From an uncultured Prevotellaceae bacterium (GTDB taxonomy: Bacteria > Bacteroidota > Bacteroidia > Bacteroidales > UBA3663), in contig CAZMOE010000005.1 in NCBI GenBank assembly GCA_964567855.1, forward strand, positions 16,150 through 80,149: 64,000 nt of DNA, given 5' to 3'. A program made the translations under genes and the position numbers. This document shows, one piece after another, positions 11,501 to 30,373 of this stretch. The notes below the pieces were generated by a model. The model worked only from the letters and a program-made list of their open reading frames with translations, made no database searches and had not been told where the DNA came from. How positions within the stretch are numbered: the first letter of the stretch is position 1; every line of letters begins with the position of its first letter.

Positions 11501-11821
11501 GAGAACGCCGCTTTGGAATAGTTCTACACCGCAGTTCAGCGCAGTTTGTCCGCCGAAGGAAAGGAGTATGCCGTCAGGACGTTCTTTCTGGATGACCTTT
11601 TCAACAAAGAATGGGGTGACCGGTAGAAAATAGATTTTGTCGGCGACGCCTTCTGATGTTTGCACCGTGGCAATATTGGGGTTGATCAGTACGGAGAAGA
11701 TGCCTTCTTCGCGCAGGGCTTTCAAAGCCTGGGAACCGGAATAGTCAAACTCGCCGGCCTCACCGATTTTCAGTGCGCCGGAACCGAGCAAAAGAACTTT
11801 TTTTATGTTATTGTTGATCAT
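8573..11821 (-). CDS. carB: carbamoyl-phosphate synthase large subunit
   Basis: Track ORF 8573..11863. I prefer the internal ATG at 11821 (MINNNIKKVLLLGSGALKIGEAGEFDYSG), which sits 16 nt after the carA stop. Two ATP-grasp halves and an MGS-like C-terminus are present. Confidence 0.96.
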   Translation of the reverse strand: MINNNIKKVLLLGSGALKIGEAGEFDYSGSQALKALREEGIFSVLINPNIATVQTSEGVADKIYFLPVTPFFVEKVIQKERPDGILLSFGGQTALNCGVELFQSGVLEKYNVQVLGTPVQAIMDTEDRELFIEKLDEINVNTIKSHACNSLDEAKAAANDLGYPVIIRAAYALGGLGSGFCDNEAELETIGNKALSFSPQILVEKSLKGWKEVEYEVVRDRYDNCITVCNMENFDPLGIHTGESIVVAPSQTLSNRDYHKLRALSIKIIRHIGIVGECNVQYAYDPNSEDYRVIEVNARLSRSSALASKATGYPLAFVAAKLGLGYGLFELKNSVTKTTSAFFEPALDYIVCKLPRWDLGKFQGVDRELGSSMKSVGEVMAIGRTFEEAIQKGLRMIGQGMHGFVENKELVIADIDKALRAPTDKRIFVISKAFRAGYTIDQIHDLTKIDKWFLQKLHGIIQTAEELEHCEESPLADVTTPAFSTLLRKAKKQGFSDFQIARALGLENSMDNEKAAMAIRNLRKRLGILPVVKQIDTLAAEYPAQTNYLYLTYNGEYQDIEFQHDGKSVIVLGSGAYRIGSSVEFDWCSVNALTTVRREGYRSVMINYNPETVSTDYDMCDRLYFDELTFERVMDIIDLESPHGVILSVGGQIPNNLAMRLDEQHVPILGTQAQYIDNAEDRQKFSSMCDRIGVEQPAWKELSTMADVDKFIAEVGFPVLVRPSYVLSGAAMNVCSNQQELVRFLQLAANVSQKHPVVISQFIEGAKEVEMDAVADQGEIVAYAISEHIEFAGVHSGDATIQFPPQKLYCETVRRIKKVAKQIARELHISGPFNIQFLARENDIKVIECNLRASRSFPFVSKVLKMNLIELAAKIMLRAPYEVPHKSEFDLDYVGIKASQFSFSRLQKADPVLGVDMSSTGEVGCLGDDTSCAILKAMLSVGLRIPAKNILISSGNPKQKLTLLRPAKMLAERGYTLYATGGSYRFLVENNVPCQHVYWPSEEMQPQALDMIRDRKIDLVINIPKNLTSGELDNGYKIRRAAIDFNVPLITNDRLAAAFIHAFCTMPIDDIAIKAWDEYGEN

Positions 11822-11837
11822 ACTGTTTCTCTCTGTT

Positions 11838-12917
11838 TCAAAGCAGGTTAAAAAACTCTTCAAAGATGAACTCCGTGTCTGTCGGGCCGGAGGAGGCTTC
11901 CGGATGGAACTGGGCCGAGAACCACGGATGGCTTTCGTGACGGATTCCTTCGTTGGTGCCGTCGTTCATATTGATGAACAGAGGTTGCCAACCGGCAGGA
12001 ATTGTGGCATTGTCTACGGCAAAACCATGATTTTGCGAGGTGATGAAACACTGGTTCGTGCCGACGCGTTGTACGGGCTGGTTGTGGCCGCGATGGCCGT
12101 ATTTCAGTTTCTTGACCTGGGCGCCGGCTGCAAGCGAAAGGAGCTGATTGCCCATACAGATCCCGTAGATGGGTTTGCCGGTCTCCATGAAACGGCGGAT
12201 GTGTTCGACCGTGATGCCGCAGAGGTTGGGGTCGCCCGGACCGTTGCTGATGAAAAGTCCGTCGTAGTCGGTCTCATCGGCATTGAAGTCGTGGTCCCAG
12301 GGCACGCGGGTGATCTCAACATCATATTTCAGGAGACAGCGCAGAATATTGTGTTTCACTCCGCAGTCTACCAGACAAATTTTTTTCTTGCCGTTGCCAT
12401 AGCGTATCACCTCCTTGCAACTGACTATGGCAACCTGGTTTACTAAGTTCGGATCCTCGAACTCGATTTCATCGGGAGTATTGAAGACGATTTTTCCTTT
12501 CATCGAACCTTTTTCTCTCAGAACTTTGGTCAGTTCACGGGTATCGATGCCGTATACACCGACAACTCCTTCCTCTTTAAGCCAATCGCCAAGAGAGCGG
12601 ACCGCATTCCAGTGGCTGTATTCAAAGGAATAGTCGCTGATAACCAATGCACGCACATGGATCCTCTCCGACTCATAAAAAGAAGAAAGCCCGTTGGCCT
12701 CAAATGAAGCTAACGGGACGCCATAATTACCTACAAGAGGAAAAGTAACGGTCAATATTTGACCGGAATAGGAAGGATCGGTCAGACTTTCGGGATATCC
12801 CATCATGGCTGTATTGAAAACAACTTCGCCATTGACCGGCTTTTCAAAACCAAAACTAAAGCCTTGAAAGACGTGTCCATCGTCTAAAATCAGGGAAACT
12901 GCTTTTTCGTTTTGCAT
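11838..12917 (-). CDS. carA: carbamoyl-phosphate synthase small (glutaminase) subunit
   Basis: 359 aa. CPSase small-chain N-domain plus class-I GATase (PIYGICMGNQLL, HRGHNQPV). Confidence 0.96.
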   Translation of the reverse strand: MQNEKAVSLILDDGHVFQGFSFGFEKPVNGEVVFNTAMMGYPESLTDPSYSGQILTVTFPLVGNYGVPLASFEANGLSSFYESERIHVRALVISDYSFEYSHWNAVRSLGDWLKEEGVVGVYGIDTRELTKVLREKGSMKGKIVFNTPDEIEFEDPNLVNQVAIVSCKEVIRYGNGKKKICLVDCGVKHNILRCLLKYDVEITRVPWDHDFNADETDYDGLFISNGPGDPNLCGITVEHIRRFMETGKPIYGICMGNQLLSLAAGAQVKKLKYGHRGHNQPVQRVGTNQCFITSQNHGFAVDNATIPAGWQPLFINMNDGTNEGIRHESHPWFSAQFHPEASSGPTDTEFIFEEFFNLL

Positions 12918-12994
12918 ATTATATGATAAATTTCGCTTATATACTTCTTCATTGACACCCCTGGCCGTTGCAATGTAAAGGGCTATATTGGGTG

Positions 12995-13002
12995 CAAAGA
13001 TA
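12995..13002 (-). promoter_or_regulatory. candidate Bacteroidetes -7 box (TATCTTTG) for carA-carB
   Basis: The plus strand reads caaagata, which is TAnnTTTG on the minus strand, about 78 nt upstream of the carA ATG. No clean -33 TTTG was seen. Confidence 0.3.
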
Positions 13003-13368
13003 GCGCAGTTCCGATAAAATCGGGCGTCTATTCAATAAAATATTTTTCGCTTGATGAAAAGAGTTTCTCTATCGGGGTGTTCTGTAAGGTAAACTTTTCA
13101 GTTGAAGTTCTATGTTTTATTGTATTTCGCTTAGAGGTTTATTATATTAATTCGATTTGTCATATATGCAATATCTTAATATGAAAATTAGATATATTTG
13201 TGGCGAAATAAATCACAATAACTGTTATTTTGTCATTATTATTATTCATTGAGCTATTATAATTTGATAAATAAGGATGTACGGAATACTGTTTATGGAT
13301 GATTGGAAAATTGTGTAGCACAAGGAGACAGACATTGACAATTATATTTTAGTAACAAATAATCAATT

Positions 13369-14850
13369 ATGAAAAAGGTAATTATTTCGGCATTAGTGGC
13401 ATTTGTTTTTATGCCGGTTGTGGTGAATGCTCAGACTTCGTTGAATGAAAATATTGCAAATGCGGTAGTCGTTCGGGATCCGGCACGACAATCTTCAACA
13501 GAGATAGATGCAGTTGTTTATAATCCGGCGGGAACGGCTTTTCTTGATGATGGTTTTCATTTTTCTTTGAATGGTATCGGTGTGTTTCAGACTTTGGAAG
13601 GGATGAGCGGGAACGGGAATGACCATCTTAAAAATATAATGCCATCTTTTCAGGCCGCCTACAAAAGAAATAATTGGACATTTTCATTCTCTTGGGCGAA
13701 TGAAGGCGGTTATGGACAATGGAAGAATAGGAACGGATCTGGCTTTTTAAATCATATTATGAAAGAAAGTGAAGTTTTTGATTCTGATTTAGCGGAAATA
13801 AATACTCTCTTTTCTGAAACTATCCAATTGTTATCAACAGCGGCAATCGGGACGGAAATATTGAATGGTGGAGTAAATCCTTTTCCATTGTTAAATGTGA
13901 GCGCGGATGATATGTATAAACCTGTATCCAAAAATCTGCGTTCTAAATTGTATAATTTTACAAACCGTTTGGGGGCGTCTTACTTGCTGAATGAAAAATG
14001 GTCCGCCTATTTGGGGGTAAAATTGAATTATGTGGTGTATCATACAAAGTTAGATGGAGATCTGTGTATGTATCGTCCTTCAACAGGAGAATCATGGACA
14101 TGTCCTGAATATTTTGAAAGTATAGCCCAGGCAATAGAATGTGGCAGGGAAAATTTATCGGAAGATCTCAAGGAAATATGGGAGGATTGGCCGCTTGATG
14201 GTTACCGGGCTTTGGGAAGGTTTGAACCAAATGTACTTATTCGCTTTAAAAAGGAGAACGGGTTGGGTGTCGCTCCTGTGATTGGATTAGATTATCATTT
14301 CAATAAAGTGAATATCGGGGCAAAATATGAATTTAAATCTGTTGTTCATACCAATAAGAATTTTGAAGATTTTGATTTACCTGCAAATCTCTCTTTGGGC
14401 GTCGACTGGCAGATAGATAAACATTGGAATGTTGCTGCTGGAGGGACTTTATATTTTAATCATTTGAATGATAATTTCGGTAAAAATGGATCCGGAAAAT
14501 CTAAATCATATACAGGGGATGTTTCTACGAGCCTATCTTATTCTCCATGTAAGAGATGGTTGTTTAGCGTGGGCGAGACTTATAGTCGATCTAATGAATT
14601 GATGAATACCGGCATAGCTGAAGATGCTATATCTTCAATTTATTCTCGATTAAAGACATCTTTGGGTGTCCAATATGATATTGTATCTAATTTACAGGTT
14701 AATGTTGGACTTAGTTGTATAACTGCAAAGTATAAACGCGAATGTTTAACGAGAGGTTTTTTTAATGGATTTGAATATCCGACATATTTTGCTAAGTCTG
14801 AGATAAAACCACAGGTGGCAGTGGCTGTCGGTTTGAATTATAGTTTTTAA
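13369..14850 (+). CDS. outer-membrane beta-barrel protein, FadL/TodX-like (putative)
   Basis: 493 aa. Signal peptide MKKVIISALVAFVFMPVVVNAQ, an N-terminal NPAG motif (VVYNPAGTAFL) as in FadL-family hatch regions, alternating beta-strand pattern, and a C-terminal aromatic residue (GLNYSF). It lies in an AT-rich stretch. Confidence 0.65.
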   Translation: MKKVIISALVAFVFMPVVVNAQTSLNENIANAVVVRDPARQSSTEIDAVVYNPAGTAFLDDGFHFSLNGIGVFQTLEGMSGNGNDHLKNIMPSFQAAYKRNNWTFSFSWANEGGYGQWKNRNGSGFLNHIMKESEVFDSDLAEINTLFSETIQLLSTAAIGTEILNGGVNPFPLLNVSADDMYKPVSKNLRSKLYNFTNRLGASYLLNEKWSAYLGVKLNYVVYHTKLDGDLCMYRPSTGESWTCPEYFESIAQAIECGRENLSEDLKEIWEDWPLDGYRALGRFEPNVLIRFKKENGLGVAPVIGLDYHFNKVNIGAKYEFKSVVHTNKNFEDFDLPANLSLGVDWQIDKHWNVAAGGTLYFNHLNDNFGKNGSGKSKSYTGDVSTSLSYSPCKRWLFSVGETYSRSNELMNTGIAEDAISSIYSRLKTSLGVQYDIVSNLQVNVGLSCITAKYKRECLTRGFFNGFEYPTYFAKSEIKPQVAVAVGLNYSF

Positions 14851-14930: not shown

Positions 14931-14964
14931 TGGGTTTTAAATGATAGATACTCTTCTGAATCTA

Positions 14965-15516
14965 TTATTTCTTGAAGTAGCGGTTGAAGAGGCCTTCGAA
15001 GCCTTTGCCGTGACGAGCTTCGTCCTTGGCCATTTCATGAACGGTGTCATGAATAGCGTCCAGATTCTGGGCCTTGGCATTTTTGGCGATGCGGAACTTG
15101 TCTGCACAGGCACCGGCTTCGGCATTCATACGCTTTTCGAGGTTGGTTTTGGTGTCCCAAACAACATCGCCGAGCAATTCAGCGAATTTGGCAGCGTGTT
15201 CTGCTTCTTCCCAGGCATAGCGCTTGAAGGCTTCGGCGATTTCCGGATAGCCTTCGCGATCAGCCTGACGGCTCATGGCCAGATACATGCCGACTTCTGT
15301 GCATTCACCGTTGAAATGAGCGTTCAGATCTTTGAGCATTTCTTCGTCAAGACCCTTGGCTACGCCGATTTCGTGAACGGTTTCAAACTGAAGACCTTTT
15401 GTTTCTTCCAATTCTTTGAATTTAGAGGCCGGAACTTTGCACTGAGGACACTGCTCAGGAGCTGTAGCACCTTCATGAACGTAACCGCAGACGGTACAAA
15501 TCCATTTTTTTTGCAT
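14965..15516 (-). CDS. rbr: reverse rubrerythrin (N-terminal rubredoxin-like domain plus ferritin-like diiron domain)
   Basis: 183 aa. [10 protein letters not shown]...CPQC at the N-terminus, then ExxH diiron motifs ([18 protein letters not shown]). Confidence 0.9.
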
Positions 15517-15574
15517 AATCGTAATGTTTAAAAGTTTATAATTAGTATATTCATATTCGTTTGTCCGGAAGGAC

Positions 15575-18949: not shown

Positions 18950-19954
18950 TTAATAATAGTTTGATAATGCCCTTATTTGGTAAAGAGCATTTTTTGAATC
19001 GTTCGAATATCCTTCTCCATTTGAGTTCCCGTAATCGAATTTTAAGTCGAACTCTATACTTTGATCTGGGGATGTCGCTTCGAATTCAGCAGAGAGTGTT
19101 TTTCGTCCTTGATATTCTTTGGTTTCCGGGGACTTTTTGATTTTTATATTGAATCCTAAATTCTGGAAGATTGAAAGCCATTCATTGTAGGAAAATTGAA
19201 AAGAAAATCCGAATTGATTTGTCCAAAGTGAGGGCATACTTTCATATCTGTTAATGGAAAGCCAGTCGAAGATCCCATCGTTTTTGGAAAAATCCCACCA
19301 GGAATGACCATTGATATCACATGTAAAATCGCCGTCTCCTTTGTCTTTTACTTCCCGGCCTAACCGCCGAGCATCGTCGAGGGTACTTGTACCAAGTGTA
19401 AGACCATCTACAGGAAAGAAGGCGTTGACATTGCGTGATGAGTTGTTTGCGAGATTGTTGGTTGTTCCGATATTGAGGCTGGTGGACTTTTGGACTTTGT
19501 CACATTCTTCAATAACATCATCACTTACATTACTGATTTGTGATCTAAGTTTGTAGAATGCGTATTTAAAAGCTTCTGCATCATTTATGTACATTTCTGC
19601 CTGGATTCTGAAACTTCCGTTCAGGCAGATAAGCTTGACTCCTTTGTATAGGTTTAATTCAGCGGAAGCCATCTTTACGGTTTCTTTGGAATATTTGGTC
19701 GGATATTCAAAAGAGCGGAACATCGTAACATACATAGGTGTGTTATCTGTTTTGCTGACAGATACATAGTAGGTTTTTCCTTCATATTTAAATTTTACAT
19801 CTCCATCAGAGTCTATTTCAGGGACAAATCCTTCTTCTTTAAGGAATTCAGAGATTTGTGTGCGCAGTTGCAGTTGACTGGCGTTATATTCATCCGCATA
19901 AGAGGCAGTTATGTAGCAAAATGCGATAATGATAAATAAAAGTATCTTTCTCAT
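18950..19954 (-). CDS. secreted/lipoprotein-like protein with a YbjN-like N-terminal domain (operon gene G)
   Basis: 334 aa. Signal peptide MRKILLFIIIAFCYITASYA. The N-terminal region (ISEFLKEEGFVPEIDSDGDVKFKYEGKTYYVSVS...) resembles the YbjN/T3SS-chaperone-like fold family. The C-terminal ~170 aa are unrecognised. The start lies 19 nt after the kinase F stop. Confidence 0.5.
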   Translation of the reverse strand: MRKILLFIIIAFCYITASYADEYNASQLQLRTQISEFLKEEGFVPEIDSDGDVKFKYEGKTYYVSVSKTDNTPMYVTMFRSFEYPTKYSKETVKMASAELNLYKGVKLICLNGSFRIQAEMYINDAEAFKYAFYKLRSQISNVSDDVIEECDKVQKSTSLNIGTTNNLANNSSRNVNAFFPVDGLTLGTSTLDDARRLGREVKDKGDGDFTCDINGHSWWDFSKNDGIFDWLSINRYESMPSLWTNQFGFSFQFSYNEWLSIFQNLGFNIKIKKSPETKEYQGRKTLSAEFEATSPDQSIEFDLKFDYGNSNGEGYSNDSKNALYQIRALSNYY

Positions 19955-19973
19955 AATGATTTTGTTTAATGGA

Positions 19974-22900
19974 TTATTTGCGGTATTTGAAGATTTCGCG
20001 GTCTTTGTTATCTTTGAGGATAACGATTAAACGCACTTCAGACGGTAAGACGCTTTTGAGTTGTTGCACGAATATGTCTGTAGCATTTTGGTAGAAAGAC
20101 ATATCCTGCTCCGAAGTTTTGTATTTCGATTCCGGAATACGAAATACCATCTCGGTCGAAGTTTTATTGAGAATGGTCCAGGATTGCAGTGTCAAATGTT
20201 TTGCATCTTCCCCCAAGTCCAAGGGTAAGTTTTTCGCAACTTCCCTTACTTCTTTTTGCCAAGAGGAAGGTTCTGTATTGGAAATGTTCTCCCAATTTTC
20301 GCCATTCCATTGTTGCCTGATGATCCGATTCCCATTTTTATCGTAACCCGATCTTTGAGAGGGATTGGAAGATGCATCATCGTATGCATAGTTCCATTTG
20401 TGGATGCCGTTTTCGGCATTTGTAGGGGATTGATTTTTCCCGAAATATGTTTCGGCGACTTTTCTGCCATATTCATCATAGGCATATGTTGCCATGAAAA
20501 CATTGTAGGCCAATGTAGGTTGTTCTTGGGTGTCGTACACGCTGTAGGATTGTATATTGTTTCTTTCATCGTATACATACTTAATGAGGTGATATTTTGA
20601 GGAAGGATTGATCATCGGTTTGTCATATTGATCGTAGTAACGGGTTTCCAATTCCTTTCCTCTTTGATTTTTTACCATTCTTATTACAGCCCATCCGGTT
20701 GCAGGGTTAATGATGAGATTTCCGTAACCGTCGCCGGCCGCGATATAGTTTATATTTCCCCATTCATCATATTGCACGAATCCTTCGGGAACATATTGAC
20801 TGATAGGGGTGGGGTTGCCATCGGTTCCATAATAAGACTGGCGTATGATACGTCCTGTAGCATCGTACTCGTTTCTGGCAATGGCATATTTATCCGTTTT
20901 TCTGCAAACCAACTTCCCTTTTGCATCGAATGTGGTAGTTTCTATGCAGTTGCCGCGGTCGTCATATTTCCATTGATAGATGGCCGCATTGTCGTTATTG
21001 ATCGGGGTGAGATTTCCGGTCAGATCGTAATATCGGACTTCAGTATCTTGACCGCGGTCATTACACGTGTATTCGGCTTGATAGTATTTTTGTTGGCAAA
21101 GGGCCGGCTTCCCTTCTGCGTTGACGCAAGAGATTTTAATCAGGTTGTCATGTTCGTCGTAGGTGTATCGGTTGTTGACCCAATAGCGGGGCAATTTCCC
21201 TTGCGCATCTGACCAATAGTTGGCGAGAACGTTCCCCCGTTCGTCATATTCCGATTTCTTTATAGCCCAGCCTTCGGAAGTATTGCAGAGTTCCCCTTGG
21301 GCGTTGACGTAACGGATTTCGAGTTGATTTCCTCTGTCATCGTATGTGGCGAACCAGCCAACGTAAGCTTCATTGACGAGATTGGTTTTTTGGCGATGAG
21401 TGTCAAAAAACTCGCGATGGGTCTCGTTACCTGTGTCATCATAATCTGATTTCCATCCAGCGATCAGTTCACTGTTTAGAACCAGGCAGTCTTCTGTTCC
21501 ATTAAAAAACTCGACCAATTCAGAGTTTCCTTGCAAGGAGTATTTGGTATGTACGCAAGGGATTTCACCATTGACAGCAGGGATTGGGTTCCCTTGGGCA
21601 TCGAAATCTTTACGGTAGATTTGCCTGCCTTGGGCATCGTATCGGTATGAGATGCTTGCGGTACCCCACGAAGTCGCGGTCAATATGTCTTCAGCATTAT
21701 AAAAGGAGACATTAATCATGTTTCCTACTTCATCGTAAGTGCTACGTTGGATAGCGAAACCTTCATTCGTCATGAAAGGATCACCGACGCTGTCGAGGTA
21801 GACGATAGTTAAGGGATACCCGTAGACGTCGTTGGTACTCTTTTGTCCGTAATATCCTTCGTTGCATGCAATCGGTTGTTTGTCTTTTCCGAAAAAGGAT
21901 ATTTCTGTTCTAAACCCGTTGGCATCATATTGGTAACGGGCACCGGTGATACCTTCGGAAGAAGAATAAGTCGGTTGATTGTCAATGCCAAAGTAGAATT
22001 GTTCGATGATAACTCCATTGGAGATGGTTTGCTCGGAGCCGGCGACATTGCAATCTCCCCGTAAGGAGAGGTTTCCATTTAGATCTTCATAAGATTGTTT
22101 GATAGTGTTACCCCATTTATCTACATAATTGCGACATACAGGAATGTTAAGATCTTTTTCCCCTGCCGGACCATAAGAGGGAGAGAGATAGGTGAACCGT
22201 ATGGGGTCATCGGCCTCATTATATTCTCGTGTGCGTATGGCCATTCCGCTTTTGGTTGCTTTGGGCTGTCCGTCATAACCGGTAAAAATCTCTTCTTTTA
22301 CGCGTCCTTTTTCATCCAAGACATATTTCCGGCCGTAAAGTCCGTCGGCGTCGCAAACGCGGGCGTTTTGGAAGCTCGCATATTTAAGTTCCGTAACGTG
22401 GCCTGCGTCATCATAGGTAAGTAGGTAACGCGAAACTTTTCCGTGTGCATCACCTTCGTCCATATTGGAGGTAAATGTCGTGACGGTTTGAGCACTTAGG
22501 TTCTTTTCGGTCCCATACTCATCGTCGTAGCGGAAAACCACGACGTTCAGGTCCTTATTGATATAGTCTTTGACCATTAAAACCTTGCCATGAGGGTCTA
22601 AAATTTTTATGTAATCAAGACTGCCGCTCTCGTTATAATAAAATTTACTGTCGGTAGGCCTTTCTATATCATCTGTAGTTGAATGTTTGATAATGCTACC
22701 CTTACTATTGATGTAAGACATGCGCAAAAGTTTGCGGCGGCAATATTCAAGACGATAGGAGGCGGTTCGGTGTGCGACTTCATCGTCAGACAGTTCATGG
22801 ATGCCCACCGGCACGCCCCATTCTTCGACATAGTCTTTGTAATAATATATCTTTGTCCGGGTATAATCCCACCAATAGATGCCAAGACCGATAACGAGAA

Positions 22901-23774
22901 TAAATGCGGCGGCAATAGAGATCTTTATCCCTTTGGGAACTTTGGGCGGATAGATAGCTATGTGAAGGGCTTTTTTAAATTCCTCGCAGCTTTGGTAACG
23001 TTCTTCCTCTTTTTTAGCTACAGCTTTGTCTACGACCTTTTGTACTTTTTCAGAGACGTATTTATAATATGTGCGTAGTCTTGGCAGCGGTTCTTCGACC
23101 ACTTTTTTGTTTATGTCTAACTCGGTCAATGTCGTGGTGTCATAAGGGGCGTTGCCCGTCAGCATCTGATGCAGGAGTACGCCGAGGGAATAGATATCGG
23201 AAGGGGTACCGAGATGCTTGCCCTGCACTTGTTCCGGGCTCATATAGGATGGAGTACCCATGATAAGGTTTTCCTCATCCTCTTCTTTCCCTTGTTTGAT
23301 GATTTTAGCGATGCCGAAATCCAGGATTTTGGGAATTCCTTCGTGAGTGATGATAATGTTGGAGGGTTTGATGTCGCGATGTAAGATGTGGTGCTTATGG
23401 GCATATCCTACAGCATCCAAAATCGGTTCGAACAGGGGGCAGATGCGGTCTTCAACAATAAGGCCGGAGACGGTTTCTATGTATTTGTCCAAACTGATAC
23501 CGTCGGCATATTCCATGATGAGATAAATATTGCCGGTTTCATCGATGTGATAGTTGATGAAATGCACGATATTCGGATGATTGAGTTCCGCCAGATGTTC
23601 TGCTTCTTCTTGCAAATGCCGACGGGTAAAGTCATTGACCATGTCGGCATTGATAACCTTGATAGCGACTTTCTGCTGTTTGATGAATTTGTGTTCTGCT
23701 AAATAGACGCTACCCATACCACCTTTGCCGATATATGAAGTGATGGTATAGTTGAGTATTTCTTTTCCGATCAT
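19974..23774 (-). CDS. Hanks-type Ser/Thr protein kinase - TM - large YD/RHS-like repeat ectodomain (operon gene F)
   Basis: 1266 aa. Kinase motifs GKGGMGSVY, VAIKVI, HRDIKPSNIII, DFGIAK and GTPSYMSPEQ. TM helix IKISIAAAFILVIGLGIYWW. About 950 aa follow, carrying about 20 YD-type motifs (YDDRGN, YDERGN, YDEHDN, YDATGR, YDEWGN, YDEYGR...). Confidence 0.85.
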   Translation of the reverse strand: MIGKEILNYTITSYIGKGGMGSVYLAEHKFIKQQKVAIKVINADMVNDFTRRHLQEEAEHLAELNHPNIVHFINYHIDETGNIYLIMEYADGISLDKYIETVSGLIVEDRICPLFEPILDAVGYAHKHHILHRDIKPSNIIITHEGIPKILDFGIAKIIKQGKEEDEENLIMGTPSYMSPEQVQGKHLGTPSDIYSLGVLLHQMLTGNAPYDTTTLTELDINKKVVEEPLPRLRTYYKYVSEKVQKVVDKAVAKKEEERYQSCEEFKKALHIAIYPPKVPKGIKISIAAAFILVIGLGIYWWDYTRTKIYYYKDYVEEWGVPVGIHELSDDEVAHRTASYRLEYCRRKLLRMSYINSKGSIIKHSTTDDIERPTDSKFYYNESGSLDYIKILDPHGKVLMVKDYINKDLNVVVFRYDDEYGTEKNLSAQTVTTFTSNMDEGDAHGKVSRYLLTYDDAGHVTELKYASFQNARVCDADGLYGRKYVLDEKGRVKEEIFTGYDGQPKATKSGMAIRTREYNEADDPIRFTYLSPSYGPAGEKDLNIPVCRNYVDKWGNTIKQSYEDLNGNLSLRGDCNVAGSEQTISNGVIIEQFYFGIDNQPTYSSSEGITGARYQYDANGFRTEISFFGKDKQPIACNEGYYGQKSTNDVYGYPLTIVYLDSVGDPFMTNEGFAIQRSTYDEVGNMINVSFYNAEDILTATSWGTASISYRYDAQGRQIYRKDFDAQGNPIPAVNGEIPCVHTKYSLQGNSELVEFFNGTEDCLVLNSELIAGWKSDYDDTGNETHREFFDTHRQKTNLVNEAYVGWFATYDDRGNQLEIRYVNAQGELCNTSEGWAIKKSEYDERGNVLANYWSDAQGKLPRYWVNNRYTYDEHDNLIKISCVNAEGKPALCQQKYYQAEYTCNDRGQDTEVRYYDLTGNLTPINNDNAAIYQWKYDDRGNCIETTTFDAKGKLVCRKTDKYAIARNEYDATGRIIRQSYYGTDGNPTPISQYVPEGFVQYDEWGNINYIAAGDGYGNLIINPATGWAVIRMVKNQRGKELETRYYDQYDKPMINPSSKYHLIKYVYDERNNIQSYSVYDTQEQPTLAYNVFMATYAYDEYGRKVAETYFGKNQSPTNAENGIHKWNYAYDDASSNPSQRSGYDKNGNRIIRQQWNGENWENISNTEPSSWQKEVREVAKNLPLDLGEDAKHLTLQSWTILNKTSTEMVFRIPESKYKTSEQDMSFYQNATDIFVQQLKSVLPSEVRLIVILKDNKDREIFKYRK

Positions 23775-23792
23775 AATTTTGTGCTTTGTGTT

Positions 23793-24314
23793 TTATAGAT
23801 TAATGAGAACAGAGACCATATTAATGGCAAATCCTACCCATGCCCAGGTGGCAATTTGAGAGGCTCGGCGGGGTGTTTCTTCTTTCATGGTGAAATACAT
23901 AATCCAACCGACCAATGGTATTAAAAATGCCAATATATTGAGACCTATCGATGGCTCATCTTTTTTTGCTGGCGTGAGAGGTACGTATGCCGGCGCCGCA
24001 GGTTGCACGGCGTGAGAAGAAGATTCACACTTTGTCTCTGCTTCGAATGGCCGGGCACTTTTAAGGGGTAACATGGCGTAGATTTGCGCCCAAGGTAGCG
24101 GGATATGATTTGCCAGCATGATGGGGGCACCGGGAGCTATCTCGATGCTGCGATTGTTGATATATTCGCCGTTTAACGTTGAGCCGTTTTTGCTTATATC
24201 TTTGTATATATAGCGTCCTCCGCTGATGCTGATCTCCGCATGAACTCGGCTGATGTTGTTGTCTGTGACGACGATGTCGCAAGAATTAGAGCGACCGATG
24301 GTAATGGATTTCAT
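23793..24314 (-). CDS. FHA domain protein with a C-terminal 2-TM hairpin (operon gene E)
   Basis: 173 aa. FHA signature (ITIGRSNSCDIVVTDNNISRVHAEI...KDISKNGSTLNG). The C-terminal IGLNILAFLIPLVGWIMYF...WAWVGFAINMVSVLINL is homologous to the C-terminus of kinase D. The start overlaps the kinase D stop (ATGA). Confidence 0.8.
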   Translation of the reverse strand: MKSITIGRSNSCDIVVTDNNISRVHAEISISGGRYIYKDISKNGSTLNGEYINNRSIEIAPGAPIMLANHIPLPWAQIYAMLPLKSARPFEAETKCESSSHAVQPAAPAYVPLTPAKKDEPSIGLNILAFLIPLVGWIMYFTMKEETPRRASQIATWAWVGFAINMVSVLINL

Positions 24315-25678
24315 GAAAATTGTAGGATAAAATTAAGTATCATGTTTATGGCAAAACCGATCCAGGCTATTTTAGCGGCTGTGTGTGCCGCTTGGGGCCT
24401 TTGTTCTTTCCAGACGCCCCAAAGCACCCATCCGACGATCGGCACAAAAAAGGACAAGATTCCCAATCCGATGCCGAGACCTGCTCGTGTCGGAGGCTGT
24501 GGGGGAGGCGGAGGTGGTAGAGTAACGGTTTGGGGCAAACGTTCTTTGAGCATTTGGATTACTGATTCCCATTCAAGCCGAATTTCCGGGCGACCTGCGA
24601 GACAAACTTCCGGCAAGGCATATTCCTGTTGCTCCGGGATAGCATAAGGAAATGACTCGGATCCGTTGTGTAGATAGCGTCCGTCGACACCCGTGCCGTT
24701 AGTACTGTGGTCTTCAATCTCAATGATGGCGCCGGTAGGACTTGTTTTCAGGTATTTATAGTGGATTTTGAGATGGTTAGAGCTTACATATTCATTGTTG
24801 ATGACGATGTCACAATCACCTCTTCCGACTGTCACTACGGCCCCGCTGACTTTTGTCTCGAGTCTTTCCGGTTCTGAAATCATTTCGTCAATGAGGGCCT
24901 GTTTGAATTTTGCTGCCGTTTGGAACCGGTTTAACATATTCTTATCGGTGGCCTTGAAGATGATGTTTTGGATTTCATCGGAAAGTTCGGGACGCAGGTC
25001 CTTGGCTCTTGGGAAATCATGATTCAAGATCTCCATCTTGGTTGCAAAGTCATTACTTTGTTTTGTGATGGCATGTTTTCCGGTGAGCATGTAGTGGAGC
25101 AGACAACCTAAGGAATAGATATCTGTCCGGTGGTCGATGCTTAATCCTTTTACTTGTTCCGGACTCATATAACCGTCGGTACCTACACACATGCCGATGG
25201 TCTGTCCGGTCGTGGTGTTCATGTCTTTGGCGATGCCAAAATCGATGACACAAATGTTGCCATCCGGTCGGATCATGATATTGGACGGTTTTATGTCGCG
25301 GTGGATTTTGTTGACGTTGTGTATATATATGAATGCGTCCAAGATTTTTCCCATCAGCTGTTTCGCCTCTTTTTCAGAATACGGCCCGTGATCTTCTACT
25401 TGCTTTTGTATGGTTTTTCCCTCCACGTATTCCATGGGTAGATAGAGGTTTCCTTTCTCGTCTGAAAAGGTCTCGCCGATAATCTTTACCACCGAGGGAT
25501 GGTTCATGCTTTTGAGGGATTTCGCTTCCGTGTCAAAGAATGCCCGGAAATTTGGAATACTTACGTATTCGCATTTCAACATCTTGATGGCTACGGAATG
25601 ACCATTGGGAGCCTTCCCTCTGTAAACGGCACCCATACCGCCCTGTCCGATTTCTTCTTCGAGAATGTAATTGTGCAT
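24311..25678 (-). CDS. Hanks-type Ser/Thr protein kinase - FHA - Pro-rich linker - 2-TM hairpin (operon gene D)
   Basis: 455 aa. Kinase motifs GQGGMGAVY, VAIKML, HRDIKPSNIMI, DFGIAKD and GTDGYMSPEQ, with a Thr-rich activation loop (NTTTGQT). FHA domain (VVTVGRGDCDIVINNEYVSSNHLKI...DHSTNGTGVDG), a PPPPPPQPP linker, then GLGILSFFVPIVGWVLWGVW...IAWIGFAINMILNFIL. Confidence 0.85.
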   Translation of the reverse strand: MHNYILEEEIGQGGMGAVYRGKAPNGHSVAIKMLKCEYVSIPNFRAFFDTEAKSLKSMNHPSVVKIIGETFSDEKGNLYLPMEYVEGKTIQKQVEDHGPYSEKEAKQLMGKILDAFIYIHNVNKIHRDIKPSNIMIRPDGNICVIDFGIAKDMNTTTGQTIGMCVGTDGYMSPEQVKGLSIDHRTDIYSLGCLLHYMLTGKHAITKQSNDFATKMEILNHDFPRAKDLRPELSDEIQNIIFKATDKNMLNRFQTAAKFKQALIDEMISEPERLETKVSGAVVTVGRGDCDIVINNEYVSSNHLKIHYKYLKTSPTGAIIEIEDHSTNGTGVDGRYLHNGSESFPYAIPEQQEYALPEVCLAGRPEIRLEWESVIQMLKERLPQTVTLPPPPPPQPPTRAGLGIGLGILSFFVPIVGWVLWGVWKEQRPQAAHTAAKIAWIGFAINMILNFILQFS

Positions 25679-25724
25679 ATTTTACTGATTTAGCATTGTT
25701 TGTACTGAAGACTTTATTCCGGAT

Positions 25725-27515
25725 TCAGACCTGAACGGTAGAAGGTGCGGATTCTTCTTTAGGGGATGTTGCAGAAGAATCAGCAGGAGCGGACTCCCCG
25801 TCGTTTTTTATTTCGTGGCTGCTGTCTCCTTCCGTCGATTTATCACTCGGAAGGGTAGTTCCTGGATTGTTTTGGGAAATGCTATCTTTTGCACTATCTA
25901 TTACTTCGGTTATCTTAGGCTTAGACTGGCCGGAATCACTTGTTTCGTGTGTTTGTTTGTCGGGAAATTGAAAGAAGAAAGTGAAGATAGTATCAGAACC
26001 ATTTATAGAAAAAACGGCAGAATCATTTTCAGGATAATCGTTTTTTTTCTTTAAAATGATTGTAGTTGTAGTACTATTCTTAGATTTGATTTCAATTTTG
26101 GGAGAGACCTTTATGATGGAGTCCTGAGCCATTTCAGATATAGATCTCTTCCATAAAGACTTGCCGGCCGGATTCTTGATTTCGATTTGGGAAGAATAGC
26201 CTGGTGTGATGGAAACTAATATTCCATTTTTATTAGCCTTTATGGAACCCAAATTTACCGGTGTGACGGGACGTTTGATGATCTCCTTATTTGCTTCATT
26301 TTTCGAATTGAAAGGGGAAACTTTGAAATGAAAAGTGCGTCTATGGCGGCCGTCTTGCAGAGTGAATGAACATTCTTCTTCTTTTTCAAGATTGACACCA
26401 TCTTTTATTTGCAAGGAAATACGATCTTCTTCCTTTTCGGTGATGGAAAGCATGTCGACATCATACAGAACGGAATCCTGATTGGCTTTAAAGCCGGCCT
26501 CATGCCAAATGAAATCGCCTGAAGAATTTTGTATGAGAGTCTCGTCTTCTCTAAAGATAATGGTACATATTTTTTTGTTTTGAGGAATGTTTATTATTCC
26601 GAAATCTTCAGTGATGGATTGAGGAGAGAGAGATTCCCAAAGGAAATAACCTCCACCACCGAGCAATAACAGCGCTAAAGCAAGGAGGCTAAACTGTAAA
26701 ATGTTTTTTTTGCGCTTGTCATCGTTCTTGGAATGTCCTCTTTTTCCGGTGGTGGTAATCGAAAATTCTACCAATTCGCAGGTGATGTTGTCTAATCCTC
26801 CGTTTTCGCGGGCCTGTTCAATCAGAGTATCGGCACGATGCTGCATATTCGTGCCGATTTTACCGGCAATTTTAGCAATGGTCGTATTCGGCACCATGTT
26901 GCTGAGCCCATCGGAGCAAAGGAGGAAAACATCGCCGGCCTGGGGGAGGATGGCCTCCTCCCTGATGGTTGCCGGTTGCATGTTGGGAATGCCTAAGGCG
27001 TTTGTGATTTCGTTTTTACGGGGATGGTGTTCCGCCTCGGCTTCACTGATCTGTCCTGCGTCGACCAAAGTCTGTACAAAAGAATGATCTTTGGTCAATT
27101 GTTTGATAGTGGATTCTCGGATCAGGTAAATGCGGCTGTCTCCCACATGGCCGATGTACACTTTGCCGTTACGCACCAATAGAAGCACGCACGTTGAACC
27201 CATTCCTGTCAGTTCGGGGTGCATTTGGGCGTGGAGCAGAATGTTTCTATTGGCTGTAAATATAGCTTCGGTGATGGCTTCATTAGGGTCCGCATGGTAA
27301 TTGTCTCGTAAGTAGGCCAATATCGAGTCGACGGCGATATGTGAGGCTGTAGCACCTCCGACATGTCCCCCCATACCGTCGCAAACTACGGCCACACGGC
27401 CGTTAGGAGTATCGTCGAACCCTAAGAAATCTTCATTGGCGGCGCGTTTACAGCCAACATCTGTCGCTCCGACGATTTGGCAATATTGGCTATAGTCCTC
27501 TAAGTTGGTTTTCAT
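25725..27515 (-). CDS. PP2C-family Ser/Thr phosphatase - TM - extracytoplasmic beta-rich region with a Ser/Asp/Glu-rich tail (operon gene C)
   Basis: 596 aa. PP2C motifs (TDVGCKRAANEDF, VVCDGMGGHVGG, LLCSDGLSN, GGLDNITC), TM helix ILQFSLLALALLLLGGGGYFLW, about 240 aa unrecognised, then a low-complexity acidic/Ser tail. Confidence 0.85.
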   Translation of the reverse strand: MKTNLEDYSQYCQIVGATDVGCKRAANEDFLGFDDTPNGRVAVVCDGMGGHVGGATASHIAVDSILAYLRDNYHADPNEAITEAIFTANRNILLHAQMHPELTGMGSTCVLLLVRNGKVYIGHVGDSRIYLIRESTIKQLTKDHSFVQTLVDAGQISEAEAEHHPRKNEITNALGIPNMQPATIREEAILPQAGDVFLLCSDGLSNMVPNTTIAKIAGKIGTNMQHRADTLIEQARENGGLDNITCELVEFSITTTGKRGHSKNDDKRKKNILQFSLLALALLLLGGGGYFLWESLSPQSITEDFGIINIPQNKKICTIIFREDETLIQNSSGDFIWHEAGFKANQDSVLYDVDMLSITEKEEDRISLQIKDGVNLEKEEECSFTLQDGRHRRTFHFKVSPFNSKNEANKEIIKRPVTPVNLGSIKANKNGILVSITPGYSSQIEIKNPAGKSLWKRSISEMAQDSIIKVSPKIEIKSKNSTTTTIILKKKNDYPENDSAVFSINGSDTIFTFFFQFPDKQTHETSDSGQSKPKITEVIDSAKDSISQNNPGTTLPSDKSTEGDSSHEIKNDGESAPADSSATSPKEESAPSTVQV

Positions 27516-27524
27516 ATAGCGAGG

Positions 27525-28094
27525 TTATAATTGGGGGATGGCAAGGAAGATGAATTTTGAGGCTCCGATGACTATGATATCATTGGTATGAATTTTGGTC
27601 TTTTCACTGACGAACGAGCCATTGATGTACACACCATTGGAGGAATTCAAATCATCGGCCCAAAAGATATTATCGCCGTTTCTGTATAAAATAAGCAGGT
27701 GTTCGGATGAAATGTGCGAATCGTTTGTGATTGGAATGTCGCAGGTATTGTTTCTTCCGATGATATTTCGTCCTTCGTATATTTTATACACTTCTCCTAA
27801 GGGAGATTGGTCGTACGAGATGAGTAATCCGACTAATTTACGTCCTCCATCGTTAGGTCCAACGGTGGTGCCGTTGAGAGTGCGGATAACGGTTCTTCCT
27901 CCTCCGACGTTTGCACCGGGGGTGGATATGGGCTTGGTGGGTATTTCTCCTGTACTGCTTTCAAAGGGGTTGTTGACTTTTGTTCTTTCTGAGTTTACTT
28001 GAGTGCTTGTCGCATTGGTAGGACAAAAGGGGCATTGATCGCCATAGATGCTTGAATCGTACTGGTGCCCGTTGGGACATTTTTTAGTTGCCAT
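27525..28094 (-). CDS. zinc-ribbon plus FHA domain protein (operon gene B)
   Basis: 189 aa. CPNGHQYDSSIYGDQCPFCP, a Thr/Ser/Pro-rich linker, then FHA (YEGRNIIGRNNTCDIPITNDSHISSEHLLI...DLNSSNGVYING). The stop is 9 nt before the PP2C start. Confidence 0.8.
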   Translation of the reverse strand: MATKKCPNGHQYDSSIYGDQCPFCPTNATSTQVNSERTKVNNPFESSTGEIPTKPISTPGANVGGGRTVIRTLNGTTVGPNDGGRKLVGLLISYDQSPLGEVYKIYEGRNIIGRNNTCDIPITNDSHISSEHLLILYRNGDNIFWADDLNSSNGVYINGSFVSEKTKIHTNDIIVIGASKFIFLAIPQL

Positions 28095-28130
28095 AAATGT
28101 TGTGGTTTAAATGATGAATGTATGATGTTT

Positions 28131-29645
28131 TTATTTGAAAAAGTCTGATGCTTTTTGCGGTTGGATAGCATGGTTATAACCTTGGGATATGCCGAGGAAT
28201 CCGGAGACAATAACTCCGGCAAAACGGCCGTGACAATCGAAAACAGGCGAGCCGCTGGCTCCTTGATGTATCGTGATATTATGCCCGTAAATGTATTCTC
28301 CTCGTTCTTGGGTGATTTCTCCGCTTTGGTTATTTGCTTCAAGTCCGATTTGGGTGCTGCCCAATGTAAAAGATTTCGGGAAACCGATGGTGTAGATTTT
28401 ATCGCCGACTTCCATATCTTCTGCATGGGCAATGTCTTTAAGGTTTACTATATGTTTTACATTGCTCGGGGTCTCTTTCGTGTTAGTTTGGATGATTGCG
28501 ATATCGACTTCTTCGTTGGAGCTGGTTTTGACAATAGAACAGCGGGTAAGATCATCTGTGCTGGAAACATGAGAATCATTTCGGCCGATACCTATCCATA
28601 GGATTTCATAATTTACTTCGACGGCATTTGCCATGGCATAATATTGATTTCTTTCCGATTTCTGTTGGCATTCATTTCCCAAGGTTATCAGTAAAGACTG
28701 GATGGCTTTTTTGATTGTTTCCGGATCTTTTCGAGCCTCTTTCCCCATTGGAGCAATAACATGTTTGTTGGTCATGATTTCTCCATGGGGTGAAATGAAA
28801 AAGCCAGTGCCGCTTGCTCCGACAACTCCGGGCGCTGCATCTCCGTCTTTGTCGATGTGGCAATAGTTGAGTTTTGAAAGTTGAGGTATGAGATCTCCGA
28901 TCGGACGGTCTTTGATTGTAACACTATAACCGGATTGTTGATAAATGAGTACCACGGAGTTTTTATACATTGCATAAATTTCGGCAGGAGTAAGTTCCTT
29001 GTTGACGTTGAACAACCATAAGAATATTCCTGTCACGACAATGGCAACGCCGGCAATGGCACTCCATGTTTTTACCTGAGGGCGCGGACGGGGAGATACC
29101 GGCGGATATATGCTTTCCCATTGGAGCGGATACTTTTGTGCCAACATGACGATGTCTCCTTTTTTGAGCGGGGCCTCTCCATGGATCCGTTGACCGTTTA
29201 CATAGGTGCCGTTAGTGGAATTACGATCGATGATGCTGATTTCGCCATTGCGTTTGCGGCAGAGAATGGCATGATGGGCCGAAACGTCGGCGATATTTTT
29301 ACAGATAATGTTGTCTGTTGCCCTTCCTATGGTTTTGGAATCTATTGTATCTGGCGTAATGCCGCTTCCTGCATTATTGTTACCGTGAACTATAGTCTTG
29401 TTGGGGGTTGATAAAGCCTGTTTCCAATCTATCACTTTGTTTCCAAGCTTTACTGTTTGTCCGGGAAGCAGTTTGGCTTCAAGAATGCGTTTCCCATCTA
29501 CGAATGTTCCATTCGTAGAGTTGAGATCTTTGATAGTTATTGAGCTTGAATCATCGATGATCAGGAGTGCATGACTTCGTGAAACGGAGTCATCGGCTAC
29601 AACAAAATCATTGGAGGAACTTTTGCCGATTTTGATGGTTTTCAT
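28131..29645 (-). CDS. FHA - FHA - TM - trypsin-like (S1/Trypsin_2-type) serine protease (operon gene A)
   Basis: 504 aa. FHA1 (IKIGKSSSNDFVVADDSVSRSHALL...DLNSTNGTFVDG), FHA2 (KTIGRATDNIICKNIADVSAHHAIL...DRNSTNGTYVNG), TM helix WSAIAGVAIVVTGIFLWLF. Putative triad His (GTGFFISPHGEIMTNKHVI), Asp (VDIAIIQT), Ser (GASGSPVFD). Confidence 0.8.
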   Translation of the reverse strand: MKTIKIGKSSSNDFVVADDSVSRSHALLIIDDSSSITIKDLNSTNGTFVDGKRILEAKLLPGQTVKLGNKVIDWKQALSTPNKTIVHGNNNAGSGITPDTIDSKTIGRATDNIICKNIADVSAHHAILCRKRNGEISIIDRNSTNGTYVNGQRIHGEAPLKKGDIVMLAQKYPLQWESIYPPVSPRPRPQVKTWSAIAGVAIVVTGIFLWLFNVNKELTPAEIYAMYKNSVVLIYQQSGYSVTIKDRPIGDLIPQLSKLNYCHIDKDGDAAPGVVGASGTGFFISPHGEIMTNKHVIAPMGKEARKDPETIKKAIQSLLITLGNECQQKSERNQYYAMANAVEVNYEILWIGIGRNDSHVSSTDDLTRCSIVKTSSNEEVDIAIIQTNTKETPSNVKHIVNLKDIAHAEDMEVGDKIYTIGFPKSFTLGSTQIGLEANNQSGEITQERGEYIYGHNITIHQGASGSPVFDCHGRFAGVIVSGFLGISQGYNHAIQPQKASDFFK

Positions 29646-30373
29646 AGTGTTTGCGGGTGGACCGACTGTTTTGTTAAGGCTGCTTGAAACCCGTTGAATG
29701 AGTTTTGTTTCACAGGAGCCGTTGATAGCCTATAGTTCCCCCGATTCGGCAAAATAAAATCAAGAATACCTTATTAAAAAGAAAAAGCGTGGGAAACTCT
29801 TCTTGCTTACCCCGCTTTTTCAGGCCTTTGCACTTGCCCACTTATCCGGATAAGCAACGCCGTTAGCCCACGCTGATGTATAGTATTATCCCCTCACTAT
29901 CTACGGACATTAATCATGCCCATAGATAGATATTGGGATGTGAATACGTCACATCTCGCCGACATTTCGTTGCTGTTTTTCTTTGGGGATAAGTTTTCAA
30001 ATGTGCAAAGTTTGAAAAAGACCAAAGCAAACGTCGAAAACGTCTTTCTTTTAAATAAAGACCACCACCCCTGTACACTTTCCAATGAAAATTGGTATCC
30101 AACAAGTTTCCCCTTGGGGCTAACAGGCGTTAAATGGTTGGGCAAATATATGGATTTTATCATTATATCATCTTGCTTTATGTGAAATTTTGTAATATTA
30201 AGTGCCTTTTTTGTTCCATTTTCCTGTTGAAAGCGTTAATTCCTTTCTTTATTAAAGGAATTAATCTGTTCAGTAGAGATTAATGAAAGTTTTAATGATA
30301 AAAACAAAGCAGAAAGAAGAAAAGATGGTCTGTGGTACTTTTTTTACAGAATGGTATTCGAAATATGAACGGC

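Follow-up and report, generated by a model that had tools for sequence, protein, structure and literature searches.

Phosphothreonine (pThr) signalling by Hanks-type kinases, PP2C phosphatases and FHA proteins is well studied in Actinobacteria, Firmicutes and Proteobacteria that carry a type VI secretion system (T6SS), and GarA/OdhI represents a classical type of FHA output. To our knowledge, such signalling has hardly been studied in Bacteroidales, which dominate among the Gram-negative orders of the gut. In the PknF-Rv1747 pair, the kinase PknF phosphorylates threonines in the linker of Rv1747 and positively regulates this transporter (PMC3138270, PMC8339232). In actinomycetes, the Esr pathway senses epibionts by phospho-Thr signalling, and its FHA output EsrG is phosphorylated on a disordered linker and in some cases has zinc fingers (PMC13622651). 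Here, we analyse a seven-gene operon at positions 18950-29645 of a stretch of 64,000 nucleotides (nt) from an uncultured Prevotellaceae bacterium (GenBank assembly GCA_964567855.1, contig CAZMOE010000005.1, positions 16,150 to 80,149 of the forward strand). The whole 64-kb stretch is called the window, all positions refer to it, and the genes, termed A to G in transcription order, lie on its minus strand. The operon is a compact, genetically tractable circuit, with a YD-repeat receptor kinase (F) as candidate sensor and an FHA-gated periplasmic protease (A) as candidate output.

Layout and conservation of the operon

An earlier interpretation made from the DNA letters and a list of open reading frames (ORFs), hereafter the sequence-only reading, had described seven tightly packed same-strand genes with FHA, kinase, PP2C and protease domains. 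Our ORF listing returned the seven minus-strand ORFs at exactly the same coordinates, with intergenic gaps of 36 (A/B), 9 (B/C), 46 (C/D), 18 (E/F) and 19 (F/G) nt and an ATGA start/stop overlap at the D/E junction (24311-24314). Pfam and NCBIfam profiles confirmed the domain calls, with five FHA domains, two Hanks kinases, one PP2C and one trypsin-like protease in total. By hydropathy, the kinases, the PP2C and all FHA domains are predicted to lie on the cytoplasmic side of the membrane, and the protease of A, the ectodomain of C, the YD repeats of F and the whole of G on the periplasmic side.

Related loci were gathered by neighbourhood look-ups, a genome scan and a metagenome scan that used the protease domain of A as its only seed, and operon genes in the recovered loci were found by tblastn of all seven proteins and ORF extraction. 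The GTDB genome scan, in which the FHA peptide pattern was too generic, gave 5 full-length homologues of A; overall, full-length homologues are numerous in gut and rumen metagenomes and metagenome-assembled genomes (MAGs) of Bacteroidaceae, Phocaeicola, Muribaculaceae and Prevotellaceae. The order A-B-C-D-(E)-F-G is found in more than 20 independent loci, wherever the DNA is long enough, and with similarly tight spacing. Since the same order recurs in so many independent loci, the arrangement is more than chance and, judged from gene order and spacing, the seven genes are one conserved operon. Co-conservation, on which the sequence-only reading had made its proposal depend, thus extends as one unit across Bacteroidaceae, Muribaculaceae and Prevotellaceae, with E sometimes absent. 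The flanking genes differ between orthologous loci every time and the chromosomal site varies between lineages, the neighbours being housekeeping genes in all seven contexts examined. One copy (L126:2259-3421 and 9582-13210), in which F is split by a frameshift, stands directly downstream of a DUF4372/DDE_Tnp_1 transposase.

Statements on residue invariance here and below rest on alignments of 19 orthologous operons. The Lys, HRD, Asn, DFG and SPE residues of both kinases, D and F, are invariant in these, as are the FHA Ser, His, Asn and Gly of A, D and E. The FHA Arg position is R or K in both FHA domains of A and in E, and in B and D it is also Q or S in one or two orthologues.

The YD-repeat kinase F and the FHA-fused protease A

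Gene F (1266 residues, 19974-23774) matches Pkinase (1.6e-54) and RHS/YD repeats. Its Hanks kinase (Pfam, residues 9-270, nt 22965-23750) is followed by a single transmembrane (TM) segment predicted from hydropathy (residues 279-303, nt 22866-22940) and by a predicted periplasmic ectodomain (residues 304-1266, nt 19977-22865) that consists of approximately 27 beta-hairpins and then a C-terminal alpha/beta domain. With the RHS_repeat profile the score is 35.5 bits (cutoff 22), and TIGR01643 also matches. An AlphaFold2 model of the ectodomain (60-sequence alignment) has a predicted local distance difference test score (pLDDT) of 90.8, a predicted template-modelling score of 0.76 and a hairpin period of approximately 32 residues, and Foldseek matches it to T6SS Rhs cores, teneurins and TcB/TcC at E-values of 1e-29 to 1e-14. 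What had been labelled 'YD-like' from the letters can hence be called a YD-repeat fold with confidence: as modelled, the fold is secure, whereas a closed cocoon is not. The ectodomain has no C-terminal DPxGL autoprotease motifs, the only DPxG being at residue 393, and profile searches detected no toxin family in F. Among orthologues, its C-terminal domain is conserved and not polymorphic.

The ectodomain is far more widespread than the operon, with 3510 relatives in an exhaustive phmmer search, 907 of them at E<=1e-30. Full-length relatives carry a TIR or nSTAND1 NTPase head in place of the kinase, always together with one TM segment; among the top 150 relatives, TIR_2 is present in 21 of the 22 proteins that have a head of approximately 160-380 residues. 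The TIR-headed genes, and most of the TIR and nSTAND1 types taken together, stand alone; they come from Clostridia, Planctomycetota and Fibrobacterota-like MAGs (TIR-headed examples P0209, P0223, P0224, P0226, P0231, P0233 and P0308; nSTAND1-headed P0237, P0241 and P0243; loci L086, with a TIR-TM-YD gene of Clostridium sp. AM58-1XD, and L087). From these architectures, the YD ectodomain appears to be a portable sensor module, and the TIR and nSTAND1 heads that share it hint at threat sensing.

Gene A (504 residues, 28131-29645) has two FHA domains (1.6e-34) and a Trypsin_2 match (9e-16). FHA1 (residues 4-68, nt 29442-29636) and FHA2 (residues ~105-170, nt 29136-29333), both assigned by Pfam, are separated by a Thr-containing linker; a single hydropathy-predicted TM segment (residues 193-215, nt 29001-29069) leads to a predicted periplasmic trypsin-like protease of the S1 family, PA clan (residues 216-504, nt 28134-29000), the H295/D381/S464 triad of which is invariant. 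The best sequence matches of the protease are DegP, DegQ, MucD, HTRA1 and Rv3671c (MarP), all of them distant. In the window protein, the inter-FHA linker contains Thr in the contexts NKT and TPDT; it is variable between operons.

Evidence on the role of A comes from sister clusters in Bacteroidota, which share with the operon a B-like FHA, a PP2C, kinases and other FHA proteins and differ in their membrane partners. A cluster in a Chitinophaga pinensis MAG (L029:3501-15820) combines a B-like FHA, a PP2C and kinases with FHA-Peptidase_M48 and FHA-FHA-ABC transporter fusions. In the cluster of a Prevotellaceae MAG, the RHS proteins are separate and a kinase-MORN protein is present. In cultured Phocaeicola massiliensis (OY726067.1, L125:5955-15853), an FHA protein, two kinases, a PP2C and a further FHA protein accompany an FHA-FHA-TM-trypsin that is approximately 30% identical to A, a WG-repeat protein and one further gene; this variant cluster could serve as a tractable model. 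In a further kinase-YD cluster (L127:177-15795), with two PP2Cs, a zinc-ribbon protein and several FHA proteins, a caspase-like Peptidase_C14 replaces the trypsin-like protease. Finally, a kinase-YD gene in Spirochaetia is directly followed by one for a 344-residue FHA-FHA protein without protease (L088:10001-14891), a pair that may represent the minimal partnership. Across the Bacteroidota clusters, the constant theme seems to be a pThr reader fused or linked to an envelope enzyme, mostly a peptidase, under variable sensors.

The sequence-only reading had named the protease of A as the likely output. Indirectly in its favour, the FHA-FHA-TM-protease architecture recurs in P. massiliensis with kinases, PP2C and FHA proteins under another sensor, and sister clusters swap the protease; what it overlooked is B as a rival output. 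By analogy, a phospho-gated output role for the FHA-FHA-TM-protease is partly supported, favoured by the peptidase swaps and by the Rv1747-like ABC fusion.

Accompanying genes, leader RNA and genomic setting

Gene B (189 residues, 27525-28094; FHA, 6e-16) has no TM segment by hydropathy and is predicted to be soluble. It consists of an N-terminal Zn-ribbon, whose ligands C6/H10/C21/C24 are invariant, a Thr-rich linker with a conserved TxxI/L/V-type motif, and the FHA domain. In the latter, Ser129 and His132 are invariant, whereas Asn153 is replaced by Gly in 3 of the 19 orthologues and Ser151 by Thr in one. B is present in every operon and a B-like FHA is also found in the sister clusters; profile searches detected no nucleic-acid-binding family in it.

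Gene C (596 residues, 25725-27515) has a PP2C domain (residues 18-254) that scores above the cutoff of the Stp1/IreP equivalog NF033484 (247.4 bits against 230), with invariant metal-binding residues D29, D46, D126, D202 and D242. A TM segment (residues 271-293) is followed by a predicted periplasmic ectodomain with an S/T/P/D-rich tail (residues 294-596, nt 25728-26636). The sequence-only reading took this ectodomain for a second input of the circuit, which is doubtful, since it is not conserved between orthologous operons: it cannot be aligned, and identity drops to 2-13% beyond residue ~300.

Gene D (455 residues, 24311-25678) has a kinase domain (Pkinase, 1e-51, residues 5-262; K32, D128, N133, D146 and E174 invariant), an FHA domain (1.7e-8, residues 282-338), a Pro-rich linker and a C-terminal hairpin of two TM segments predicted from hydropathy (residues 397-455, nt 24314-24490). 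Gene E (173 residues, 23793-24314), with an FHA domain (1e-15, residues 4-67) and a two-TM hairpin (residues 121-173, nt 23796-23954), is a paralogue of the C-terminal FHA-2TM module of D (33% identity); where it is absent from an orthologous operon, D abuts F. The hairpins of D and E share the motif G.G.LSFxxPxxGWxLxxxWKxxxP...A...W.G, which belongs to no Pfam family and gives weak PLDc_N-like matches only. Profile matches of the FHA proteins to Yop-YscD_cpl, GltG, EspA and OdhI cover the FHA domain only and were rejected as identities.

Gene G (334 residues, 18950-19954) begins with a predicted signal peptide (residues 1-20), and no Pfam or NCBIfam family scores above threshold in it. A conserved domain that resembles type III secretion system chaperones and YbjN at the level of fold (residues ~22-160, nt 19475-19891) is followed by a disordered linker and a variable C-terminal domain (residues ~180-334), as seen in orthologue comparison. 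In the model (pLDDT 78), the N-terminal domain matches E. coli YbjN (6vu7), SchA, ExsC and SycE with template-modelling scores (TM-scores) of 0.6-0.7, root-mean-square deviations of 3-4 A and Foldseek E-values of 2e-3 to 5e-2. The designation 'YbjN-like' in the sequence-only reading is therefore supported as a fold assignment only; at the level of sequence the Pfam YbjN and TY-Chap1 matches (E 0.02-0.03, 15 bits) stay below their cutoffs of 22-27 and a sequence-profile search against PDB sequences gave no match. The orthologue in L124 also has a weak TY-Chap1 match; TY-chaperones are peptide-binding chaperones (PMC9503650). Orthologues of G retain the N-terminal domain only, the C-terminal domain being of at least two unrelated types across lineages, and some operons have a tandem duplicate of G (L004:19762-21385, L098 and L118:18843-20836).

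Upstream of A, a covariance model and minimum free energy folding identify a conserved leader hairpin RNA of approximately 95 nt on the minus strand (29781-29875). It folds into a P1 helix (AGCGUGGG/CCCACGCU) and a long P3 stem, has a conserved sequence at its apex (GGGnnnUGCgAAGnCCU) and carries a U-run at the 3' end, with a minimum free energy of -37.5 kcal/mol (z = -3.7). Covariance models, the first from two instances and later ones from six, detect the hairpin in 10 operon loci from several families, out of approximately 25, always on the same strand as A and 30-750 nt upstream of it (L007:607-700, L010:9832-9931, L090:7759-7845, L091:8844-8938, L092:8143-8229, L109:8766-8847 and 6467-6548, L110:8482-8563, L112:1671-1769 and L113:649-736). 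Elsewhere in 639 kb there is no match except the second copy in L109, and 1.33 Mb of unrelated loci gave one match of 22 bits. In the six-sequence alignment, which was fitted to its own model, 94.7% of cells are paired and 10 of 22 pairs are changed on both sides, a level that none of 500 shuffles reaches; slid controls drop to 38-49% paired. Rfam has no family for the leader or hairpin, at gathering thresholds or at permissive E-values.

We place the hairpin within the mRNA leader because it ends only 32-90 nt before the start codon of A in several loci; from its form and distribution, it is a candidate attenuator or terminator, or the 3' end of a small RNA, that is specific to the operon. 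TAnnTTTG is the Bacteroidetes -7 promoter consensus, and a pattern scan found its sole match within 860 nt upstream of A at 30143-30150 (minus strand), upstream of the hairpin. As a candidate operon promoter, this box implies a leader of approximately 490 nt. A scan of the operon for sigma-70 promoters and intrinsic terminators was uninformative, the counts being equal to shuffle expectation. An 88-residue ORF in the leader (29897-30163) was rejected as a gene, its conservation being confined to the same species.

The operon has an atypical composition, with a GC content of 0.44 and a GC content at third codon positions (GC3) of 0.37-0.52, against 0.55-0.67 in flanking genes. Housekeeping genes fill the remainder of the window (gltBD, carAB, nrdD, tex, rdgB, folP and recF, with genes for a LysR regulator, an Asp-Al_Ex transporter, an AddA-like helicase and TonB-dependent receptors). 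The absence of a RodA/penicillin-binding protein (PBP), T6SS, vWA or AAA output machine from the operon and its flanks, asserted by the sequence-only reading, holds: Pfam finds no RodA/PBP, T6SS, vWA or MoxR-type AAA+ gene there or in the rest of the window, and seven other genomic contexts of the operon have no vWA or MoxR gene. A RecF/SMC-type ATPase gene with AAA_15/21/23 matches (51319-52467) lies more than 20 kb from the operon. Between carA and nrdD, two plus-strand ORFs of 493 and 196 residues (13369-14850 and 14941-15531) belong to no Pfam family; the former, with a GC content of 0.37 and a GC3 of 0.31, is strongly AT-biased and possibly a further acquired segment.

Signal flow, rival explanations and known systems

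Anatomy, topology, conservation and module swaps are what we observe, and from them we infer the whole of the signal flow. In the reading that we prefer, tentatively and at a little under an even chance, F would be a single-pass receptor kinase that perceives a cue in the periplasm or envelope through its YD ectodomain, perhaps with the help of the chaperone-like G. F and D would phosphorylate one another as well as the Thr-rich linkers in the FHA proteins, pThr/FHA binding would gather A, D, E and B at the membrane, and clustering of A through its FHA-linker-FHA part, by the logic of Rv1747, would activate or position the periplasmic S1 protease as the constant output. The membrane PP2C, C, would reset the system, and the leader hairpin with its U-run would probably add transcriptional attenuation. 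The likely role is surveillance for envelope or contact threats and not routine growth control. We favour this role on the grounds of the links to TIR, STAND and caspase-like proteins, the rapid evolution of the periplasmic parts, the unusual base composition and the variable insertion sites, one of them beside an insertion sequence (IS). The self-contained trans-envelope pThr circuit put forward by the sequence-only reading agrees with this in topology, in the conservation of the unit and in having no known output machine.

A wider proposal, which we consider possible and on balance doubtful, is that F-type proteins form a family of single-pass type II receptors with interchangeable kinase, TIR or nSTAND1 heads. 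The Bacteroidales kinase version would act through a pThr/FHA cascade on a phospho-gated periplasmic protease, with peptidases swapped among sisters and an RNA attenuator in its own leader, so that Toll-like-receptor or receptor-kinase logic would be applied to envelope threats.

Several observations weigh against our preferred reading of signal flow from F to A. Gating of the protease from the cytoplasm would have to pass through the single TM segment of A, and no Thr of the inter-FHA linker of A is invariant across orthologues. The Spirochaetia FHA-FHA protein without protease implies that the kinase-FHA partnership can do without the protease. Foldseek TM-scores of F to solved shells are 0.15-0.32 (0.2-0.3 for Rhs shells), and a closed cocoon is only a possible geometry of F. 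The flanks are housekeeping genes and not defence islands, and PADLOC recognises no system. Lastly, B is by analogy a classical type of adaptor or output, like GarA/OdhI and EsrG, and as such an equally classical and serious rival output.

The last point leads to the best-surviving alternative, which we rate as somewhat unlikely: the output would be cytoplasmic, through B in the manner of GarA/OdhI or EsrG. Phosphorylation of its linker would switch FHA or Zn-ribbon binding to unlinked targets, possibly including the operon's own leader RNA (autoregulated antitermination), and A would act upstream, for example by processing G, the C ectodomain or a ligand to activate F. B is the only component without hydropathy-predicted membrane segments or export, its Zn-ligands and linker motif are conserved, and it is present in every operon, with a B-like FHA in the sister clusters; EsrG-type FHA outputs, some of them zinc-fingered, are phosphorylated on a disordered linker (PMC13622651), and the conserved leader hairpin would need a trans-acting factor. 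However, B matches no nucleic-acid-binding family, the hairpin was detected in fewer than half of the operon loci, and the recurrent FHA-fused peptidase or transporter as membrane partner would be left unexplained.

Unlikely, in our estimate, is a dedicated defence or conflict system, in which the YD receptor would detect an invader (phage, epibiont or competitor toxin) at the envelope and the pThr cascade would set free the protease, which would damage the cell itself or degrade the invader, by analogy with conflict systems armed with TIR, caspase or trypsin domains. The ectodomain shared with TIR- and nSTAND1-headed proteins, the caspase-like C14 swap in a sister cluster, the hypervariable C ectodomain and swapped C-terminal domain of G, the low GC3 and the varying insertion sites, one adjoining an IS transposase, are all consistent with it, and phospho-Thr threat sensing is known in Actinobacteria (PMC13622651). 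On the other hand, PADLOC, whose systems include PD-T4-6, MADS and Menshen/Mokosh, found no complete anti-phage system and no partner gene of any listed system, with B and E giving no match; its kinase matches (PD-T4-6, mad6 and MkoA) were rejected as generic, those to PD-T4-6 and MAD6 covering the kinase catalytic domain only. Phage records contain no copy of the operon and the plasmid collection no closely related one, the single match there being a variant cluster of ~29% identity on a 140-kb non-mobilizable P. massiliensis record. The housekeeping neighbours in all seven contexts examined also speak against defence, and stable retention across three families with all activities intact fits a physiological role as well.

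A housekeeping regulator of envelope growth or division, as the Bacteroidales counterpart of FhaA-FhaB-PstP-PknA-PknB acting on unlinked peptidoglycan or outer-membrane machinery, appears highly improbable. The similar order of FHA, FHA, PP2C, kinase and kinase, the Stp1/PstP-type PP2C above its equivalog cutoff and the location in a core-like chromosome argue for it, but the operon has neither RodA/PBP nor PASTA and falls short of the kinase and FhaB equivalogs (scores below), its chromosomal site differs between lineages and its composition is atypical. The named relatives that carry it are moreover MAGs only, the one cultured Phocaeicola match having a different variant. That F is a Rhs/YD polymorphic toxin, with the other genes for delivery or immunity, was rejected as largely refuted and retains a negligible probability: YD repeats and Foldseek matches to T6SS Rhs effectors are present, but the N-terminus is a kinase with a TM anchor and no PAAR/VgrG-type delivery domain, the C-terminal domain is conserved and free of DPxGL motifs and toxin domain, and there is no immunity-like gene pattern.

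If FHA:pThr clustering does control the A protease from the cytoplasm, periplasmic proteolysis would be governed from the inside out, which is unusual. The presence of the YD ectodomain behind TIR and STAND heads suggests that there is a broader class of immune-like bacterial receptors spanning the envelope, and that bacteria use the teneurin-type fold in signalling. The conserved leader RNA may be a new cis-regulatory motif.

Compared with described systems, the operon resembles the actinobacterial cluster fhaA-fhaB-pstP-rodA-pbpA-pknA-pknB in the order of FHA, FHA, PP2C and two kinases and in its Stp1/PstP-type PP2C. However, it has no rodA/ftsW or pbpA, and it adds a protease, a YD ectodomain and a secreted chaperone-like protein. 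The echo of this locus noted in the sequence-only reading is limited to generic domains: D and F reach 248 and 255 bits on the PASTA kinase equivalog (PknB/Stk1, NF033483) against a cutoff of 450, over the catalytic part only and with no PASTA match, and A, B and E reach 89.7, 40.9 and 37.9 bits on FhaB/FipA (NF049868) against 125. Its further statement that such cassettes are always wired to an effector machine was too strong, with PknF-Rv1747 and GarA/OdhI as counter-examples.

With the T6SS pathway of PpkA/PppA/Fha1-TagH, the operon has in common a membrane Hanks kinase, a PP2C and an FHA protein as a post-translational envelope switch, but the window has no T6SS genes, TagH (TIGR03354) is matched at 36-44 bits against a cutoff of 120 and the kinases have no vWA. 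Esr and the vWA-MoxR ternary conflict systems (PMC13622651; PMC7159879) likewise combine a surface sensor, a Ser/Thr kinase and phosphatase and an FHA output, with diversified sensor and output parts, and B resembles EsrG in its conserved Thr-containing linker, the phosphorylation of which is predicted only. The operon differs in having no vWA, MoxR, transglutaminase or beta-propeller filament and in belonging to diderm bacteria of another phylum, with a protease and a YD receptor instead.

At the level of single proteins, F shares the YD-repeat hairpin fold with Rhs/YD toxins and teneurins (Foldseek E 1e-29 to 1e-21) and has the type II topology of teneurins, with the N-terminus inside, a TM segment and the YD repeats outside (PMC5851990, PMC13018210), and the topology of the TIR- or nSTAND1-TM-YD proteins resembles Toll-like receptors as well as teneurins. 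F differs from Rhs toxins and teneurins in having no toxin domain or DPxGL autoprotease and no detected NHL, FN-plug or Tox-GHH, and from Rhs toxins in its N-terminus, a Hanks kinase with intact catalytic residues and a TM segment and not of PAAR/VgrG type. The protease of A shares the His-Asp-Ser triad with HtrA/DegP/MucD and with MarP, which is likewise membrane-anchored. Unlike HtrA/DegP (S1C), it has no PDZ match, it scores far below the family cutoff (TIGR02037, 37 bits against 416), it has a long insert between His and Asp, and the cytoplasmic N-terminal FHA pair is unique to the A family.

A is most like Rv1747, with two N-terminal cytoplasmic FHA domains, a Thr-containing linker, a membrane output and a cognate kinase in the operon; here, however, the output is a single-pass TM segment with a periplasmic S1 protease and not an ABC exporter, and the system comprises a pair of kinases, a PP2C in the membrane and, besides A, three FHA proteins. 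Public annotation of the genes is generic ('FHA domain-containing protein', 'serine/threonine protein kinase'), and a full-text literature search found no description of the operon or of kinase/TIR-TM-YD receptors. By analogy, the operon would work like a Hanks-kinase/PP2C/FHA switch, and A like Rv1747, without belonging to any characterised cassette. Its parts and logic are familiar; what appears to be new is that a YD receptor kinase is combined with a putatively FHA-gated periplasmic protease, that this combination is widely conserved in gut Bacteroidales, that its YD ectodomain links it to proteins with TIR or STAND heads and that it has a leader RNA of its own.

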